The notes under the pieces are model-generated. The model made no database searches. It saw nothing but the letters and a program-made list of their open reading frames with translations, and had not been told where the DNA came from. Positions 31,450 through 38,906 of a DNA stretch of 64,000 bases are shown here, piece by piece. Both the position numbers and the translations under genes were made by a program. The first letter of the stretch is position 1, and every line of letters starts with the position of its first letter. Origin of the DNA: Escherichia coli (GTDB taxonomy: Bacteria > Pseudomonadota > Gammaproteobacteria > Enterobacterales > Enterobacteriaceae); NCBI RefSeq assembly GCF_011045215.1, contig NZ_CP049201.1; one strand, 5' to 3'.

Positions 31450-33036
31450 TCAGTTTTTCAGCCGCCGCCAGAACGTCGTCCGGCTTATGCCTAAATAATT
31501 CGCCGCTGCTGTTTTATCGCCTTTAAATTTCTCCAGTGCCTGTTGTGGTGTCAGTAAGCGTGGAGCGGGAATTTTCGCCGACTCGCGCGCCAGTTCCGGC
31601 AGTAGCAGCTGCAAAAACTGCGGCGTTAAATCCGGCGTCGGTTCCACACTTAAAAACAGCGCCAGTCGCTCCATCATATTGCGCAGTTCACGAATATTAC
31701 CTGGCCAGTCGTAGCGCAGCAGCACAGTTTCACTTGCCTGTAACCCCTGGCGTAATGCAGCAGAAAATGGGGCGGAGAGCGCCGCCAGAGACACTTTCAA
31801 AAAGCTTTCCGCCAGTGGCAGAATATCTGCCACCCGCTCGCGCAGTGGTGGCAATTGCAGACGCAAAATACTCAGCCGATAAAACAGATCACGGCGAAAC
31901 TGCCCTTGCCGCATATCTTCTTCCAGATTGCAGTGAGTGGCGCTAATGACCCGCACATCCACCGGAACAGGCTGATGCCCGCCGACGCGAGTAACCTCTT
32001 TTTCTTCCAGCACCCGTAACAGGCGAGTCTGCAAAGGTAGCGGCATTTCGCCAATCTCATCCAAAAACAGCGTGCCACCGTGGGCGATTTCAAACAGCCC
32101 GGCACGACCTCCGCGTCGCGAGCCGGTAAACGCCCCTTCCTCATAGCCAAACAGCTCCGCTTCCAGCAGCGATTCGGCAATCGCCCCGCAGTTGACGGCA
32201 ACAAATGGATGCGACTTTTTGCCCTGTCGCGCATCGTGGCGGGCAAAATATTCCCGATGAATTGCCTGGGCCGCCAGCTCTTTGCCCGTCCCCGTTTCCC
32301 CCTCAATCAACACCGCTGCACTGGAGCGGGCATACAGCAAAATAGTCTGCCGTACTTGTTCCATCTGTGGTGATTGACCGAGCATATCGCCCAGCACGTA
32401 ACGAGTTCTCAGGGCGTTGCGGGTGGCATCGTGAGTGTTATGGCGTAACGACATGCGCGTCATATCCAGCGCATCGCTGAACGCCTGGCGCACGGTGGCG
32501 GCGGAATAGATAAAAATTCCGGTCATTCCGGCTTCTTCTGCCAGATCGGTAATCAACCCCGCGCCGACCACCGCTTCGGTGCCGTTAGCTTTTAGCTCGT
32601 TAATCTGCCCGCGTGCGTCTTCTTCGGTAATGTAGCTACGTTGATCGAGGCGCAAATTAAAGGTTTTTTGAAACGCCACCAGTGCCGGAATAGTTTCCTG
32701 ATAAGTGACAACGCCGATAGAAGAGGTGAGCTTTCCGGCTTTTGCCAGTGCCTGTAACACATCGTAGCCGCTCGGTTTAATCAAAATAACTGGCACTGAC
32801 AGGCGGCTTTTCAGGTACGCGCCGTTAGAGCCAGCGGCGATGATGGCGTCGCAGCGTTCGTTTGCCAGTTTCTTGCGGATATAGGTCACTGCTTTTTCAA
32901 AGCCAAGCTGAATAGGGGTAATGTTCGCCAGGTGATCAAACTCGAGGCTGATATCGCGAAACAGCTCGAACAGGCGCGTTACAGATACCGTCCAGATAAC
33001 CGGTTTGTCGTCATTCAGCCGTGGTGGATGTGCCAT
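31450..33036 (-). CDS. prpR: Sigma-54-dependent activator of propionate catabolism (AAA+ enhancer-binding protein)
   Basis: ORF 31450..33048; start at ATG 33036 ([13 protein letters not shown]), 528 aa; Walker [15 protein letters not shown] sigma-54 contact motif, C-terminal HTH. Confidence 0.95.
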
Positions 33037-33079
33037 AGCGCACCGCAAAGTTAAGAAACCGAATATTGGGTTTAGCCTT

Positions 33080-33137
33080 GTTTCATAATTGTTGCAATGA
33101 AACGCGGTGAAACATTGTCTGAAACGTTAACTGAAAC
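33080..33137. promoter_or_regulatory. Cluster of TGAAAC hexamers (four direct, one inverted) upstream of the prpB sigma-54 promoter; candidate PrpR enhancer
   Basis: GTTTCA at 33080-85; TGAAAC at 33098, 33108, 33120, 33132 (10-12 bp phasing), 75-130 bp upstream of the -24/-12 element. Binder is inferred. Confidence 0.45.
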
Positions 33138-33212
33138 GCATATTTGCGGATTAGTTCATGACTTTATCTCTAACAAATTGAAACTAAACATTTAATTTTA
33201 TTCAGTCAATTG

Positions 33213-33228
33213 TGGCACACCCCTTGCT
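33213..33228 (+). promoter_or_regulatory. Sigma-54 (-24/-12) promoter of prpBCDE
   Basis: TGGCAC-N5-TTGCT (GG and GC spaced exactly as in the consensus), about 50 bp upstream of the prpB ATG, with prpR divergent. Confidence 0.75.
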
Positions 33229-33274
33229 TTGTCTTTATCAACGCAAATAACAAGTTGATAACAAAGGATGGGCT

Positions 33275-34165
33275 ATGTCTCTACACTCTCCAGGTAAAGC
33301 GTTTCGCGCTGCACTGTCTAAAGAAAATCCATTGCAGATTGTTGGCACCATTAACGCCAACCATGCGCTGTTGGCGCAGCGTGCCGGATATCAGGCAATT
33401 TATCTCTCCGGCGGTGGCGTGGCGGCAGGGTCGCTGGGGCTGCCCGATCTCGGTATTTCTACTCTTGATGACGTGTTGACAGATATTCGCCGTATCACCG
33501 ACGTTTGTTCGCTGCCGCTGCTGGTGGATGCGGATATCGGTTTTGGTTCTTCTGCTTTTAACGTGGCGCGCACCGTGAAATCGATGATTAAAGCCGGTGC
33601 GGCAGGATTGCATATTGAAGATCAGGTTGGTGCGAAACGCTGCGGTCATCGTCCGAATAAAGCGATCGTCTCGAAAGAGGAGATGGTGGATCGGATCCGC
33701 GCGGCGGTGGATGCGAAAACCGATCCTGATTTTGTGATCATGGCGCGCACCGATGCGCTGGCGGTTGAAGGACTGGATGCGGCGATCGAGCGTGCGCAGG
33801 CCTATGTTGAAGCGGGTGCCGAGATGTTGTTCCCGGAGGCGATTACCGAACTCGCCATGTACCGCCAGTTTGCCGATGCGGTGCAGGTGCCAATCCTCGC
33901 CAACATTACCGAATTTGGTGCCACGCCGCTGTTTACCACCGACGAATTACGCAGCGCCCATGTCGCAATGGCGCTGTACCCGCTTTCAGCGTTCCGTGCC
34001 ATGAACCGCGCCGCTGAACATGTCTACAACGTCCTGCGTCAGGAAGGCACGCAGAAAAGTGTCATCGACACCATGCAAACCCGCAACGAGCTGTACGAAA
34101 GCATCAACTACTACCAGTACGAAGAGAAGCTCGACGACCTGTTTGCCCGTAACCAGGCGAAATAA
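33275..34165 (+). CDS. prpB: 2-methylisocitrate lyase
   Basis: 296-aa ORF, isocitrate lyase/PEP mutase family (catalytic motif KRCGH). Confidence 0.95.
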
Positions 34166-34194
34166 AAAACGCCCGTTGGTTGTATTTGACAACC

Positions 34195-34295
34195 GATGCC
34201 TGATGCGCCGCTGACGCGACTTATCAGGCCTACGGGGTGTACTGAACTGTAGGTCGGATAAGACGCATGGCGTCGCATCCGACAACAATCTCGAC
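34195..34295. repeat. REP pair (BIME) in the prpB-prpC intergenic region
   Basis: gcctgatgcgccgctgacgcgacttatcaggcctac and gtaggtcggataagacgcatggcgtcgcatccgac palindromic units. Confidence 0.8.
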
Positions 34296-34325
34296 CCTAC
34301 AAATGATAACAATGACGAGGACAAT

Positions 34326-35495
34326 ATGAGCGACACAACAATCCTGCAAAACAGTACCCATGTCATTAAACCGAAAAAATCTGTGGCACTTTCTGGCGTT
34401 CCGGCGGGCAATACGGCGCTCTGCACCGTGGGTAAAAGCGGCAATGACCTGCATTACCGCGGCTACGATATTCTTGATCTGGCGGAACATTGCGAATTTG
34501 AAGAAGTGGCGCATCTGCTGATCCACGGCAAACTGCCGACCCGTGACGAACTCGCCGCTTACAAAACGAAACTGAAAGCCCTGCGCGGTTTACCGGCTAA
34601 CGTGCGTACCGTGCTGGAAGCCTTACCGGCGGCGTCACACCCGATGGATGTTATGCGCACCGGCGTTTCCGCGCTCGGCTGCACGCTGCCAGAAAAAGAG
34701 GGGCATACCGTCTCTGGCGCGCGGGATATTGCCGACAAACTGCTGGCATCACTTAGCTCGATTCTCCTTTATTGGTATCACTACAGCCATAACGGCGAAC
34801 GCATCCAGCCGGAAACCGATGACGACTCCATCGGCGGTCACTTCCTGCATCTGCTGCACGGCGAAAAGCCGTCGCAAAGCTGGGAAAAGGCGATGCATAT
34901 TTCGCTGGTGCTGTACGCCGAACACGAGTTTAACGCCTCCACCTTTACCAGTCGGGTGATTGCGGGCACTGGCTCTGATATGTATTCCGCGATTATTGGC
35001 GCGATTGGCGCACTGCGCGGGCCGAAACACGGCGGGGCGAATGAAGTGTCGCTGGAGATCCAGCAACGCTACGAAACGCCAGACGAAGCCGAAGCCGATA
35101 TCCGCAAGCGGGTGGAAAACAAAGAAGTGGTCATTGGTTTTGGTCATCCGGTTTATACCATCGCCGACCCGCGCCACCAGGTGATTAAACGTGTGGCGAA
35201 GCAGCTCTCGCAGGAAGGCGGCTCGCTGAAGATGTACAACATCGCCGATCGCCTGGAAACGGTGATGTGGGAAACGAAAAAGATGTTCCCCAATCTCGAC
35301 TGGTTCTCCGCTGTTTCCTACAACATGATGGGCGTTCCCACCGAGATGTTCACACCACTGTTTGTTATCGCCCGCGTCACCGGCTGGGCGGCGCACATTA
35401 TCGAACAACGTCAGGACAACAAAATTATCCGTCCTTCCGCCAATTATGTTGGACCGGAAGACCGCCAGTTTGTCGCGCTGGATAAGCGCCAGTAA
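34326..35495 (+). CDS. prpC: 2-methylcitrate synthase
   Basis: 389-aa ORF, citrate synthase family (GFGHPVY motif). Confidence 0.95.
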
Positions 35496-35528
35496 ACCTC
35501 TACGAATAACAATAAGGAAACGTACCCA

Positions 35529-36980
35529 ATGTCAGCTCAAATCAACAACATCCGCCCGGAATTTGATCGTGAAATCGTTGATATCGTCGATTACGTCATG
35601 AACTACGAAATCAGCTCTAAAGTGGCCTACGACACCGCACATTTCTGCCTGCTCGACACTCTCGGCTGCGGTCTGGAAGCTCTCGAATACCCGGCCTGTA
35701 AAAAACTGCTGGGGCCAGTTGTCCCCGGCACCGTCGTACCTAACGGCGTGCGCGTCCCCGGAACTCAGTTCCAGCTCGACCCCGTCCAGGCGGCATTTAA
35801 CATCGGCGCGATGATCCGCTGGCTCGATTTCAACGATACCTGGCTTGCGGCAGAGTGGGGCCATCCTTCCGACAACCTCGGCGGCATTCTGGCAACGGCG
35901 GACTGGCTTTCACGCAACGCGGTCGCCAGCGGCAAAGCGCCGTTGACCATGAAACAGGTACTGACCGGAATGATTAAAGCTCATGAAATTCAGGGCTGCA
36001 TCGCGCTGGAAAACTCCTTTAACCGCGTCGGCCTCGACCACGTTCTGTTAGTGAAAGTGGCTTCCACCGCCGTGGTCGCCGAAATGCTCGGTCTGACCCG
36101 CGAGGAAATTCTCAATGCCGTTTCGCTGGCGTGGGTGGACGGTCAGTCGCTGCGCACCTATCGCCATGCGCCGAACACCGGCACGCGTAAATCCTGGGCA
36201 GCGGGCGATGCCACTTCCCGCGCGGTACGTCTGGCACTGATGGCGAAAACGGGCGAAATGGGTTATCCGTCAGCCCTGACTGCGCCTGTGTGGGGCTTCT
36301 ACGACGTTTCCTTCAAAGGTGAATCGTTCCGCTTCCAGCGCCCGTACGGTTCTTACGTGATGGAAAATGTGCTGTTCAAAATCTCCTTCCCGGCGGAGTT
36401 CCACTCCCAGACGGCAGTTGAAGCAGCGATGACGCTCTATGAACAGATGCAGGCAGCAGGCAAAACGGCGGCGGATATCGAAAAAGTGACCATTCGCACC
36501 CACGAAGCCTGTATTCGCATCATCGACAAAAAGGGGCCGCTTAATAACCCGGCAGACCGCGACCACTGCATTCAGTACATGGTGGCGATCCCGCTGCTGT
36601 TCGGGCGCTTAACGGCGGCAGATTACGAGGACAACGTTGCGCAAGATAAACGCATCGACGCCCTGCGCGAGAAGATCAATTGCTTTGAAGATCCGGCGTT
36701 TACCGCTGACTACCACGACCCGGAAAAACGCGCCATCGCCAATGCCATTACTCTTGAGTTCACCGACGGCACGCGCTTTGAAGAAGTGGTGGTGGAGTAC
36801 CCCATTGGTCATGCTCGCCGCCGTCAGGATGGCATTCCGAAGCTGGTGGATAAATTCAAAATCAATCTCGCGCGCCAGTTCCCGACTCGCCAGCAGCAGC
36901 GCATTCTGGAGGTTTCTCTCGACAGAGCTCGCCTGGAACAGATGCCGGTCAATGAGTATCTCGACCTGTACGTCATTTAA
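35529..36980 (+). CDS. prpD: 2-methylcitrate dehydratase
   Basis: 483-aa ORF, MmgE/PrpD family. Confidence 0.95.
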
Positions 36981-37019
36981 GCAAACAGCGGTAAGGCGTA
37001 AGTTCAACAGGAGAGCATT

Positions 37020-38906
37020 ATGTCTTTTAGCGAATTTTATCAGCGTTCGATTAACGAACCGGAGCAGTTCTGGGCCGAGCAGGCCCGGCGTATTGACTGG
37101 CAGACGCCCTTTACGCAAACGCTCGATCACAGCAATCCTCCGTTTGCTCGTTGGTTTTGTGAAGGCCGAACCAACTTGTGTCACAACGCTATCGATCGCT
37201 GGCTGGAGAAACAGCCAGAGGCGCTGGCGCTGATTGCCGTCTCTTCGGAAACAGAAGAAGAGCGCACCTTTACCTTTCGTCAGCTGCATGACGAAGTGAA
37301 CGCGGTGGCGTCAATGCTGCGCTCACTGGGCGTGCAGCGTGGCGAACGGGTGCTGGTGTATATGCCGATGATTGCCGAAGCGCATATAACCCTGCTGGCT
37401 TGCGCGCGCATTGGCGCTATTCACTCGGTGGTGTTTGGTGGATTTGCCTCTCATAGCGTGGCGGCGCGAATTGATGATGCTAAACCGGTGCTGATTGTCT
37501 CGGCTGATGCCGGAGCGCGCGGTGGCAAAATCATTCCCTATAAAAAATTGCTCGACGATGCGATAAGTCAGGCGCAGCACCAGCCGCGCCATGTTTTGCT
37601 GGTGGATCGCGGGCTGGCGAAAATGGCGCGCGTCAGCGGGCGGGATGTCGATTTCGCGTCGTTGCGCCATCAACACATCGGCGCGCGGGTACCGGTGGCG
37701 TGGCTGGAATCCAACGAAACCTCCTGCATTCTCTACACCTCCGGCACGACCGGCAAACCTAAAGGCGTGCAGCGCGACGTCGGCGGATATGCGGTGGCGC
37801 TGGCGACCTCGATGGACACCATTTTTGGCGGCAAAGCGGGCGGTGTGTTCTTTTGTGCTTCGGATATCGGCTGGGTGGTGGGGCATTCGTATATCGTCTA
37901 CGCGCCGCTGCTGGCGGGGATGGCGACTATCGTTTACGAAGGATTACCGACCTGGCCGGACTGCGGCGTGTGGTGGAAAATCGTCGAGAAATATCAGGTT
38001 AGCCGGATGTTCTCAGCGCCGACCGCCATTCGCGTGCTGAAAAAATTCCCTACCGCTGAAATTCGCAAACACGATCTCTCGTCGCTGGAAGTACTCTATC
38101 TGGCGGGGGAGCCGCTGGACGAGCCAACCGCCAGTTGGGTAAGCAATACGCTGGATGTGCCGGTTATCGACAACTACTGGCAGACCGAATCCGGCTGGCC
38201 GATTATGGCGATTGCTCGCGGTCTGGACGACAGGCCGACGCGTCTGGGAAGCCCCGGCGTGCCGATGTATGGCTATAACGTGCAGTTGCTTAATGAAGTC
38301 ACCGGCGAACCGTGTGGCGTCAACGAGAAAGGGATGCTGGTGGTGGAAGGGCCGCTGCCGCCGGGCTGTATTCAGACCATCTGGGGCGACGACGACCGCT
38401 TTGTGAAGACTTACTGGTCGCTGTTTTCCCGCCCGGTGTACGCCACCTTTGACTGGGGCATCCGTGACGCTGACGGTTATCACTTTATTCTCGGGCGCAC
38501 TGACGATGTAATTAACGTCGCCGGGCATCGGCTGGGCACGCGCGAGATTGAAGAGAGTATCTCCAGTCATCCGGGCGTTGCCGAAGTGGCGGTGGTTGGG
38601 GTGAAAGATGCGCTGAAAGGGCAGGTGGCGGTGGCGTTTGTCATTCCGAAAGAGAGCGACAGTCTGGAAGACCGCGAGGTGGCGCATTCACAAGAGAACG
38701 CGATTATGGCGCTGGTGGACAGCCAGATTGGCAACTTTGGCCGCCCGGCGCACGTCTGGTTTGTCTCGCAATTGCCAAAAACGCGATCCGGAAAAATGCT
38801 GCGCCGCACGATCCAGGCGATTTGCGAAGGACGCGATCCTGGGGATCTGACGACCATTGATGATCCTGCGTCGTTGGATCAGATCCGCCAGGCGATGGAA
38901 GAGTAA
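37020..38906 (+). CDS. prpE: Propionyl-CoA synthetase (acyl-CoA synthetase, AMP-forming)
   Basis: 628-aa ORF; AMP-binding signature YTSGTTGKPKG. Confidence 0.95.
   Translation: MSFSEFYQRSINEPEQFWAEQARRIDWQTPFTQTLDHSNPPFARWFCEGRTNLCHNAIDRWLEKQPEALALIAVSSETEEERTFTFRQLHDEVNAVASMLRSLGVQRGERVLVYMPMIAEAHITLLACARIGAIHSVVFGGFASHSVAARIDDAKPVLIVSADAGARGGKIIPYKKLLDDAISQAQHQPRHVLLVDRGLAKMARVSGRDVDFASLRHQHIGARVPVAWLESNETSCILYTSGTTGKPKGVQRDVGGYAVALATSMDTIFGGKAGGVFFCASDIGWVVGHSYIVYAPLLAGMATIVYEGLPTWPDCGVWWKIVEKYQVSRMFSAPTAIRVLKKFPTAEIRKHDLSSLEVLYLAGEPLDEPTASWVSNTLDVPVIDNYWQTESGWPIMAIARGLDDRPTRLGSPGVPMYGYNVQLLNEVTGEPCGVNEKGMLVVEGPLPPGCIQTIWGDDDRFVKTYWSLFSRPVYATFDWGIRDADGYHFILGRTDDVINVAGHRLGTREIEESISSHPGVAEVAVVGVKDALKGQVAVAFVIPKESDSLEDREVAHSQENAIMALVDSQIGNFGRPAHVWFVSQLPKTRSGKMLRRTIQAICEGRDPGDLTTIDDPASLDQIRQAMEE

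Follow-up and report, generated by a model that had tools for sequence, protein, structure and literature searches.

A phased array of TGAAAC half-sites upstream of the sigma-54 promoter of prpBCDE in Escherichia coli, a probable enhancer for PrpR

The prpR-prpBCDE locus

The stretch of DNA analysed here (64 kb, hereafter the window) reads as E. coli-type chromosome, and its prpR-prpB region proved to be 95-99% identical in a comparison with about 5200 complete E. coli genomes. Gene calls were taken from the RefSeq annotation of a 99.3%-identical E. coli genome, together with the open reading frames (ORFs) of the window. In the best-matching genome, the RefSeq annotation gives the gene order yahO, prpR (minus strand), prpB, prpC, prpD, prpE and codB. 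The features from which the argument starts are the following.

31450-33036, minus strand: prpR, encoding a sigma-54 enhancer-binding activator of 528 aa (RefSeq annotation, Pfam)
33037-33274: prpR-prpB spacer, 238 bp
33275-38906, plus strand: prpBCDE operon (ORFs, RefSeq annotation of the orthologous region)
33275-34165, plus strand: prpB (ORF, RefSeq; Pfam PEP_mutase/ICL matches)
34326-35495, plus strand: prpC (ORF, RefSeq)
35529-36980, plus strand: prpD (ORF, RefSeq)
37020-38906, plus strand: prpE (ORF, RefSeq)

The prpR product carries Pfam matches to the PrpR_N sensor domain (8e-52), the AAA+ domain Sigma54_activat (1.5e-65) and a C-terminal HTH_8 (1.2e-10). An Rfam scan of 32900-34500 returned no match within the prpR-prpB spacer; in the prpB-prpC spacer, REP-like Rfam matches occur, all of them below threshold.

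The sigma-54 promoter

Upstream of prpB, the initial annotation had placed a -24/-12 element, and this assignment holds: TGGCACaccccTTGCt occupies 33213-33228 and is the sole exact match to TGGCAC-N5-TTGC in the 64-kb window.

33213-33228, plus strand: predicted sigma-54 promoter PprpB, TGGCAC (-24) N5 TTGCT (-12) (consensus match, conservation)

The element has GG at -24 and GC at -12 at the exact ten-base spacing, matching TGGCAC-N5-TTGCW, and 72 of 78 related prpR-prpB spacers contain TGGCAY-N5-TTGC. Of the six that do not, two from Photorhabdus (loci L040 and L045) were inspected, and both read TGGTAC-N5-TTGC. Counting from the -12 position, transcription of prpB would start at about 33238. 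Published work agrees with a sigma-54 promoter at this place, as the K-12 prpR/prpB spacer holds a gSELEX peak for the RpoN holoenzyme (PMC8743547) and ntrA has been reported to be required at Salmonella prp (Palacios 2000, as cited in PMC4987338 and PMC5566544).

The hexamer array

Between prpR and the promoter lie an inverted GTTTCA at 33080 and four direct TGAAAC copies at 33098, 33108, 33120 and 33132, spaced by 10, 12 and 12 bp; they had been described before, and every coordinate is exact. Measured to the first base of the -24 element, these hexamers lie 76-133 bp upstream. The dyad that was said to join GTTTCA with the first TGAAAC is likewise real, with arms that reach 7 nt (GTTTCAT-N10-ATGAAAC) and, in a looser version, 17 nt at 76% complementarity. 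Two further copies had been overlooked, one perfect (a sixth, TGAAAC at 33179-33184) and one with a mismatch (GTTGCA, 33091-33096), and neither the full length of the repeat unit nor the resemblance of slot 6 to a Cra box had been noted. Among the hexamers of the window array, the extended form is TGAAACG in three cases, TGAAACA in one and inverted TGAAACA in one, and the repeat unit exceeds the hexamer, reading aTGAAACr. The array, described before with four direct copies, is better taken as six slots, two facing prpR and four facing prpB.

33080-33085, minus strand: slot 1, GTTTCA, inverted putative PrpR half-site (TGAAACA on the minus strand), invariant in 16/16 aligned Enterobacteriaceae
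33091-33096, minus strand: slot 2, GTTGCA, one-mismatch putative half-site, 11 bp from slot 1 (alignment columns)
33098-33104, plus strand: slot 3, TGAAACG, putative half-site, dyad partner of slot 1
33108-33114, plus strand: slot 4, TGAAACA, putative half-site
33114-33119: slot 4', ATTGTC in the window, the position of GTTTCA in some relatives
33120-33126, plus strand: slot 5, TGAAACG, putative half-site, equivalent to the right half of CGTTTCA/TGAAACG, the palindrome published for Salmonella
33132-33138, plus strand: slot 6, TGAAACG, putative half-site, overlapping the Cra-like 14-mer ACTGAAACGCATAT (33130-33143)

Over the whole 64-kb window, TGAAAC and GTTTCA are not enriched (42 copies observed vs 35.8 expected). 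Five copies in 60 bp nevertheless compare with an expectation of 0.039, a cluster with a Poisson P of ~8e-10 per span and of ~5e-5 after correction for every start position in the window, and none of the other 60-bp spans in the 64-kb window holds more than one copy. The array is also nearly constant within the species: of 5426 complete E. coli genomes, 5212 carry the 76-bp stretch at 90% identity or more. The spacer as a whole is identical at 233 of 238 positions to that of the K-12 derivative J53, and none of the five differences falls in the five upstream hexamers or in the promoter, while one of them turns the TGAAAC at 33179 into TGAAAT. Since the array is near-universal and the spacer nearly that of K-12, the window carries the well-studied PprpB control region that is used in pPro vectors.

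Relation to the PrpR site of Salmonella

In work by Palacios and Escalante-Semerena from 2004, the Salmonella enhancer was reportedly found to hold two dyad-symmetric PrpR sites, of which the promoter-proximal one has the higher affinity. The experimentally derived Salmonella PrpR enhancer is listed as CGTTTCATGAAACG in Table 1 of PMC4987338, citing Palacios & Escalante-Semerena (2004), and its half-site is TGAAAC plus G, that is, the hexamer of the window extended by a single base. For Salmonella, footprinting of PrpR has been reported. PrpR is described as looping to E-sigma-54 from an enhancer-like element to which it binds upstream of PprpBCDE (PMC13213109). The full 14-bp palindrome CGTTTCATGAAACG is absent from the window, where cATTGTC/TGAAACG at 33113-33126 preserves the right half only. 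Because the left proximal half reads ATTGTC, the two-dyad model of Salmonella is not simply transferable to Escherichia; the missing palindrome weakens the identity with the Salmonella architecture and leaves the claim of a PrpR enhancer itself unweakened.

How the two architectures are related can be followed in a gap-free alignment of 16 Enterobacteriaceae spacers, in which the slots occupy fixed positions. Slots 1 and 5 are invariant (16/16). Slot 2 is GTTGCA in Escherichia, Citrobacter, Salmonella and Pluralibacter and a perfect GTTTCA in Pseudocitrobacter, Entomohabitans and Shimwellia, and slot 3 is kept in Escherichia, Citrobacter, Salmonella and the Pluralibacter MAG and missing from the Pseudocitrobacter group. 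Slot 4 is found in Escherichia, P. gergoviae, Pseudocitrobacter, Entomohabitans and Shimwellia (E. albertii has TGAAAT) and is missing from Citrobacter and Salmonella. Slot 4' is GTTTCA in S. enterica subsp. arizonae, several Citrobacter and the Pluralibacter MAG, with one-mismatch copies in other Citrobacter and Salmonella. Together with slot 5 it forms the published palindrome, which is present as the exact 14-mer in S. enterica subsp. arizonae (locus L026), the left halves of S. enterica subsp. diarizonae and other Citrobacter being the one-mismatch forms GTTCCA and GTTTTA. Slot 6, finally, is perfect in Escherichia only and reads TGACAC in Citrobacter and Salmonella and TGAAGC in Pseudocitrobacter. 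The alignment supplies the check that had been suggested for this promoter: the hexamer phasing is conserved in other enterobacterial prp promoters, and the slot arrangement is lineage-specific.

The Salmonella regulator is about 80% identical to the PrpR of the window over its full length (S. enterica subspecies loci L026 and L027), and both systems have in common the divergent prpR and prpBCDE genes, the half-site TGAAAC(G), slots 1, 2, 3 and 5, the TGGCAY-N5-TTGC promoter and, between it and the enhancer, A+T-rich DNA. They differ at the proximal site, where S. enterica subsp. arizonae and several Citrobacter have the abutting palindrome CGTTTCA/TGAAACG, whereas the left half is ATTGTC in Escherichia, which has instead a perfect TGAAAC 12 bp upstream (slot 4) and another 12 bp downstream (slot 6) of slot 5. 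The gap from the last hexamer to the -24 element differs as well, amounting to 75 bp in Escherichia vs 112 bp in Salmonella. Judged from the aligned spacers, Escherichia has kept the distal dyad and lost the left half of the proximal palindrome, and shows four direct repeats in its place. The earlier description of direct repeats holds for Escherichia, and has to be refined by the abutting palindrome at the proximal site of S. enterica subsp. arizonae and several Citrobacter.

Conservation across genera

A wider survey rested on 80 loci that were fetched by alignment of the PrpR N-terminal domain from bacterial contigs with one genome per species, covering Escherichia, Citrobacter, Salmonella, Pluralibacter, Pseudocitrobacter, Entomohabitans, Shimwellia, Photorhabdus, Xenorhabdus and many Burkholderiales. 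The divergent layout of prpR and prpB is retained in 78 of these loci, and in every clade of the 78, in Enterobacterales as in Burkholderiales, a GTTTCA/TGAAAC cluster lies upstream of TGGCAY-N5-TTGC. The motif also emerges from an unbiased test, in which all hexamers in 18 genus-level spacers were scored against dinucleotide-preserving shuffles: GTTTCA/TGAAAC ranks first, with 79 copies vs 4.8 expected (z = 35) and an occurrence in 18/18 genera, and the hexamers ranked next (GAAACA, GAAACG and ATGAAA) are overlapping extensions of TGAAAC. The base that follows TGAAAC is a purine in 95% of 150 occurrences.

The arrangement of the copies is as regular as their sequence. Of 89 neighbouring pairs in the same orientation, 44 show a distance of 11-13 bp and 15 one of 21-22 bp, GTTTCA and a neighbouring TGAAAC are 6 bp or 16-18 bp apart, and the orientation is strongly polarised, GTTTCA lying towards prpR and TGAAAC towards prpB (41 GTTTCA-to-TGAAAC transitions vs 4 in reverse). 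The mean number of sites per enhancer is 4.2 for perfect copies and rises to 5.6 with near-perfect ones included. In 20 representative spacers, the distance from the end of the last hexamer to the -24 element downstream ranges from 68 to 143 bp. In Burkholderiales, both the hexamer motif and its phasing are kept although the remaining spacer sequence is unrelated. The recognition helix of the C-terminal HTH of PrpR, LGISRTT[LF]WRRL, is conserved from E. coli to Burkholderiales, which is consistent with one DNA specificity common to PrpR proteins.

It might be argued that the repeats are a functionless product of chance or of slippage in A+T-rich intergenic DNA, and the spacer is indeed A+T-rich, with slots 4 and 6 not being kept across all Enterobacteriaceae. 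This explanation is effectively refuted by the statistics of the cluster within the window, the enrichment over 18 genera and the invariance of slots 1 and 5, and the near-constancy of the array among complete E. coli genomes speaks against it too.

A+T-rich DNA and IHF-like cores between array and promoter

The 75 bp that separate slot 6 from the -24 element are 73% A+T and include two candidate sites for IHF.

33171-33183, minus strand: IHF-like core TTTCAATTTGTTA, one mismatch to WATCAANNNNTTR (consensus scan)
33185-33197, minus strand: second IHF-like core, one mismatch (consensus scan)

A match to the IHF core is present between the last hexamer and the -24 element in 60 of 73 loci; A+T-rich DNA yields such matches often. 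In several Burkholderiales, the interval between enhancer and promoter holds perfect IHF cores. Requirements for sigma-54, 2-methylcitrate and, in Salmonella, IHF have been reported (PMC5566544). The core at 33171-33183 contains most of the additional TGAAAC at 33179-33184. A role of this copy as a promoter-proximal PrpR site was weighed and dismissed, as it reads TGAAAT in K-12 and other Escherichia; lying within the core and being unconserved even within Escherichia, it is assigned to the IHF-like site and not to PrpR.

Cra and CRP as alternative occupants of the array

The half-site of PrpR shares its core with the operators of Cra (FruR), so that some or all of the TGAAAC copies could be read as Cra operators which place prpBCDE, prpR or both under carbon-flux control, instead of or besides PrpR. 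The Cra consensus half-site TGAAWC covers TGAAAC, with the full consensus given as RSTGAAWCSNTHHW (PMC5829826) and also as gcTGAAtCGaTTCAgc (PMC5888115). The 14-mer at 33130-33143 has one mismatch to RSTGAAWCSNTHHW and that at 33118-33131 has two, one-mismatch matches recur at the orthologous position in Citrobacter, Salmonella, Pseudocitrobacter and Entomohabitans, and genomic SELEX has been reported to place a Cra site in the prpB regulatory region (Shimada 2011, as cited in PMC5829826). However, Cra binding to prpB DNA was undetected by EMSA (PMC5829826), and prp goes unmentioned in the main text of an in vivo Cra ChIP-exo study (PMC5888115). Matches with at most one mismatch number 18 in the 64-kb window, a high background, and the orthologous site of Citrobacter and Salmonella has TGAC, which breaks the best-conserved positions of the Cra site. 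The geometry differs too: Cra operators are convergent (TGAAtC/GaTTCA), the PrpR palindrome has the opposite arrangement (GTTTCA/TGAAAC), and abutting convergent TGAAAC/GTTTCA pairs of the Cra type (TGAAWC/GWTTCA) are absent from the window and from 43 distinct arrangements. In Burkholderiales, moreover, the arrays accompany prpR as direct repeats unlike Cra palindromes. Cra control through the array is on these grounds improbable, and Cra is at most an overlay on slot 6.

A second regulator has to be considered since the prpR promoter must lie within the same 238-bp spacer, and the hexamers might be elements of a divergent, CRP-dependent prpR promoter (a CRP site, -35/-10 or UP-like elements) and not activator sites of PprpB. 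PprpR and PprpB are both described as CRP-activated, and in E. coli the PrpR operator and a CRP site are stated to overlap (PMC9452892, citing Lee et al. 2005; PMC5566544); according to the same account, PrpR regulation was lost in E. coli when this overlapping CRP/PrpR operator was mutated (PMC9452892, citing Lee 2005). A scan of the hexamer array for TGTGA-N6-TCACA yielded no match with three or fewer mismatches, the best having four, and the best match to the CRP consensus in the spacer has three mismatches and lies at 33204-33219, overlapping the -24 element. No promoter passed a sigma-70 consensus scan of 32950-33350, in which the prpR promoter was not located. The hexamer is the published PrpR half-site, and a role in the prpR promoter would leave without explanation the conservation of motif and phasing in Burkholderiales, whose spacers are otherwise unrelated. 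We regard this second reading as still less credible than control by Cra.

A PrpR enhancer and its proposed mode of action

Taken together, the phased clustering of the hexamers, their conservation and their match to the half-site TGAAACG lead to the reading that the TGAAAC array is the upstream enhancer through which PrpR activates the sigma-54 promoter PprpB, to which we assign a probability of about 0.88. The geometry of a PrpR enhancer, as proposed in the initial annotation, gains support from the flanking prpR and prpBCDE genes, the published half-site, the conservation at 78 loci and the conserved recognition helix. The sequence elements themselves, their non-random clustering, their conservation and phasing and the match to the published half-site are direct observations; the dependence on 2-methylcitrate, sigma-54 and IHF rests on the literature, and slot occupancy, the number of PrpR subunits and the transcription start are inferred.

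In the mechanism that we propose, the divergently encoded PrpR would bind the aTGAAACr half-sites within 33080-33138 through its C-terminal Fis-type HTH, in an array of six slots, two facing prpR and four facing prpB. Binding to the array would concentrate PrpR and assemble the active AAA+ oligomer. IHF would then bend the A+T-rich DNA at about 33171-33197, so bringing the oligomer into contact with the closed complex of RNA polymerase and sigma-54 at 33213-33227. PrpR_N would sense 2-methylcitrate, formed from propionate via PrpE and PrpC, ATP hydrolysis would drive the formation of the open complex, and prpBCDE would be transcribed from the predicted start.

The proposed arrangement resembles the classical NtrC/NifA layout, with its multiple upstream sites, IHF and GG-N10-GC promoter. 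At the NtrC-dependent promoters glnAp2 and glnH and the NifA-dependent promoter nifH, the activator has several binding sites about 100-150 bp upstream of GG-N10-GC, IHF bends the DNA between the sites and the promoter, and the activator combines an AAA+ domain with a Fis-type HTH. The sites of NtrC and NifA are dyads bound by dimers, e.g., TGCACC-N5-GGTGCA (PMC4987338, Table 1), whereas the PrpR array is made of a single short, oriented half-site that recurs about once per helical turn, with a strong bias in orientation. The GntR-type PrpR of Xanthomonas and Pseudomonas and the PrpR of Mycobacterium have in common with the protein discussed here only the gene name and the regulated pathway. 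The Xanthomonas PrpR palindrome, GTTGCAA-N2-TTGCAAC (PMC12153269), was accordingly set aside as a comparison, being the unrelated site of a repressor from an unrelated protein family.

Several observations count against the PrpR enhancer as described. Besides the missing left half of the published palindrome and the core shared with the Cra half-site, direct repeats are unusual for dimeric activators of the Fis-type HTH class, and the divergent prpR promoter shares the 238 bp, so that some of the conservation could serve prpR transcription or CRP.

The direct repeats lead to a broader and more tentative idea, namely that PrpR enhancers are phased arrays of 4-6 copies of a single oriented half-site, aTGAAACr, and not dyads for the binding of dimers, with prpR-facing copies on the left, prpB-facing copies on the right, a distance of about one helical turn between them, and slots that turn over between genera. 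We consider this generalization conceivable and, on balance, unlikely. If it were true, each HTH of a PrpR hexamer would dock independently on a flexible tether, with one half-site per subunit, and slot 6 might double as a Cra box in Escherichia.

Significance and use of the slot map

For E. coli and Salmonella, promoter, activator, half-site and the architecture as a whole are already in the literature, and the DNA is essentially that of K-12; a standard arrangement of enhancer, IHF-like site and sigma-54 promoter at a well-studied operon holds no biological surprise. The TGAAAC motif may already figure in a comparative genomic study of propionate regulons by Suvorova and colleagues from 2012, and so may the turnover of slots and the docking of a PrpR hexamer on six half-sites. 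The propionate-inducible pPro vectors, like several propionate biosensors, are built around PprpB and PrpR (PMC5566544, PMC9452892, PMC10101121, PMC13213109). For such systems, the slot map names concrete targets for mutations that tune leakiness and dynamic range, and it sorts the sites into invariant ones (slots 1 and 5), lineage-specific ones (slots 3, 4 and 6) and one that is probably IHF-like rather than a PrpR site (33179).

The turnover of slots between lineages and a PrpR hexamer seated on six independently oriented half-sites are modestly interesting, if unproven, additions to this picture. The slot map also offers a testable reason for the stronger promoter of Salmonella: if PrpR enhancers are arrays of single half-sites, the difference in slots between Escherichia and Salmonella could underlie the reported threefold difference in PprpB output.

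Further elements around the probable PrpR half-sites

Beside the six probable PrpR half-sites, numbered as slots 1 to 6 (TGAAAC or GTTTCA, slot 2 with one mismatch; 33080-33138), the prpR-prpB spacer and the operon downstream carry the following features:

33070-33075, GTTTAG, 10 bp upstream of slot 1 (GTTTCA, 33080) and the mirror of slot 4 (TGAAAC, 33108)
33171-33188 and 33248-33265, 18-nt direct repeat with 78% identity
33235-33242 and 33254-33261, 8-nt perfect inverted repeat TTATCAAC/GTTGATAA
33248-33260, minus strand, perfect IHF-core match TATCAACTTGTTA in the prpB 5' leader, within the span of the inverted repeat
34156-34230 and 34252-34297, sub-threshold Rfam naRNA4 matches at the REP-like elements of the prpB-prpC spacer

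The GTTTAG could be a weak seventh half-site or a piece of the prpR promoter. It is included in a 17-nt imperfect inverted repeat (33070-33086 versus 33097-33113, 76% complementary), and in the alignment of Enterobacteriaceae spacers GGTTTAG is kept in Escherichia and Citrobacter. At slot 6 the 14-mer ACTGAAACGCATAT (33130-33143) differs by one mismatch from RSTGAAWCSNTHHW, the consensus of the LacI-family regulator Cra, and one-mismatch matches are also found at the orthologous position in Citrobacter, Salmonella, Pseudocitrobacter and Entomohabitans. The literature on Cra at prpB is conflicting, a site having been reported by genomic SELEX whereas EMSA was negative.

The prpB leader and the prpB-prpC spacer

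The leader element at 33235-33265 may be an additional IHF site or may form a hairpin; its TAACAAGTTGATAACAA is kept in Escherichia and Citrobacter among the related spacers compared. Similar ATAACAA-(n)-GAGG/AGGA strings lie directly 5' of the prpB and prpC start codons (33255-33274 and 34300-34325), and most related genera have such a string ahead of prpB as well. It could act as an extended element for translation initiation or for the binding of a regulator. Two REP-like palindromic elements are located inside the prpB-prpC spacer (34166-34325), where repeat number differs among E. coli strains (PMC7360682).

The sigma-54 element in related genera and the PrpR protein

The exact sigma-54 promoter element TGGCAY-N5-TTGC was not found in six related spacers, five from Photorhabdus (L040, L042, L045, L046 and L054) and one from Xenorhabdus (L081). 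Of these, L040 and L045 were read, and both have TGGTAC-N5-TTGC instead, in which GG-N10-GC is retained and T replaces the usually conserved C. In the PrpR encoded in the window (prpR, 31450-33036) the sigma-54 contact motif is GAFTGS, the canonical form being GAFTGA, as has also been remarked for PrpR (PMC3162934). This protein shares 100% identity with PrpR of Escherichia sp. E1V33 over the N-terminal 222 residues, but only 96.8% over its whole length, a disparity which hints that prpR is a mosaic gene.
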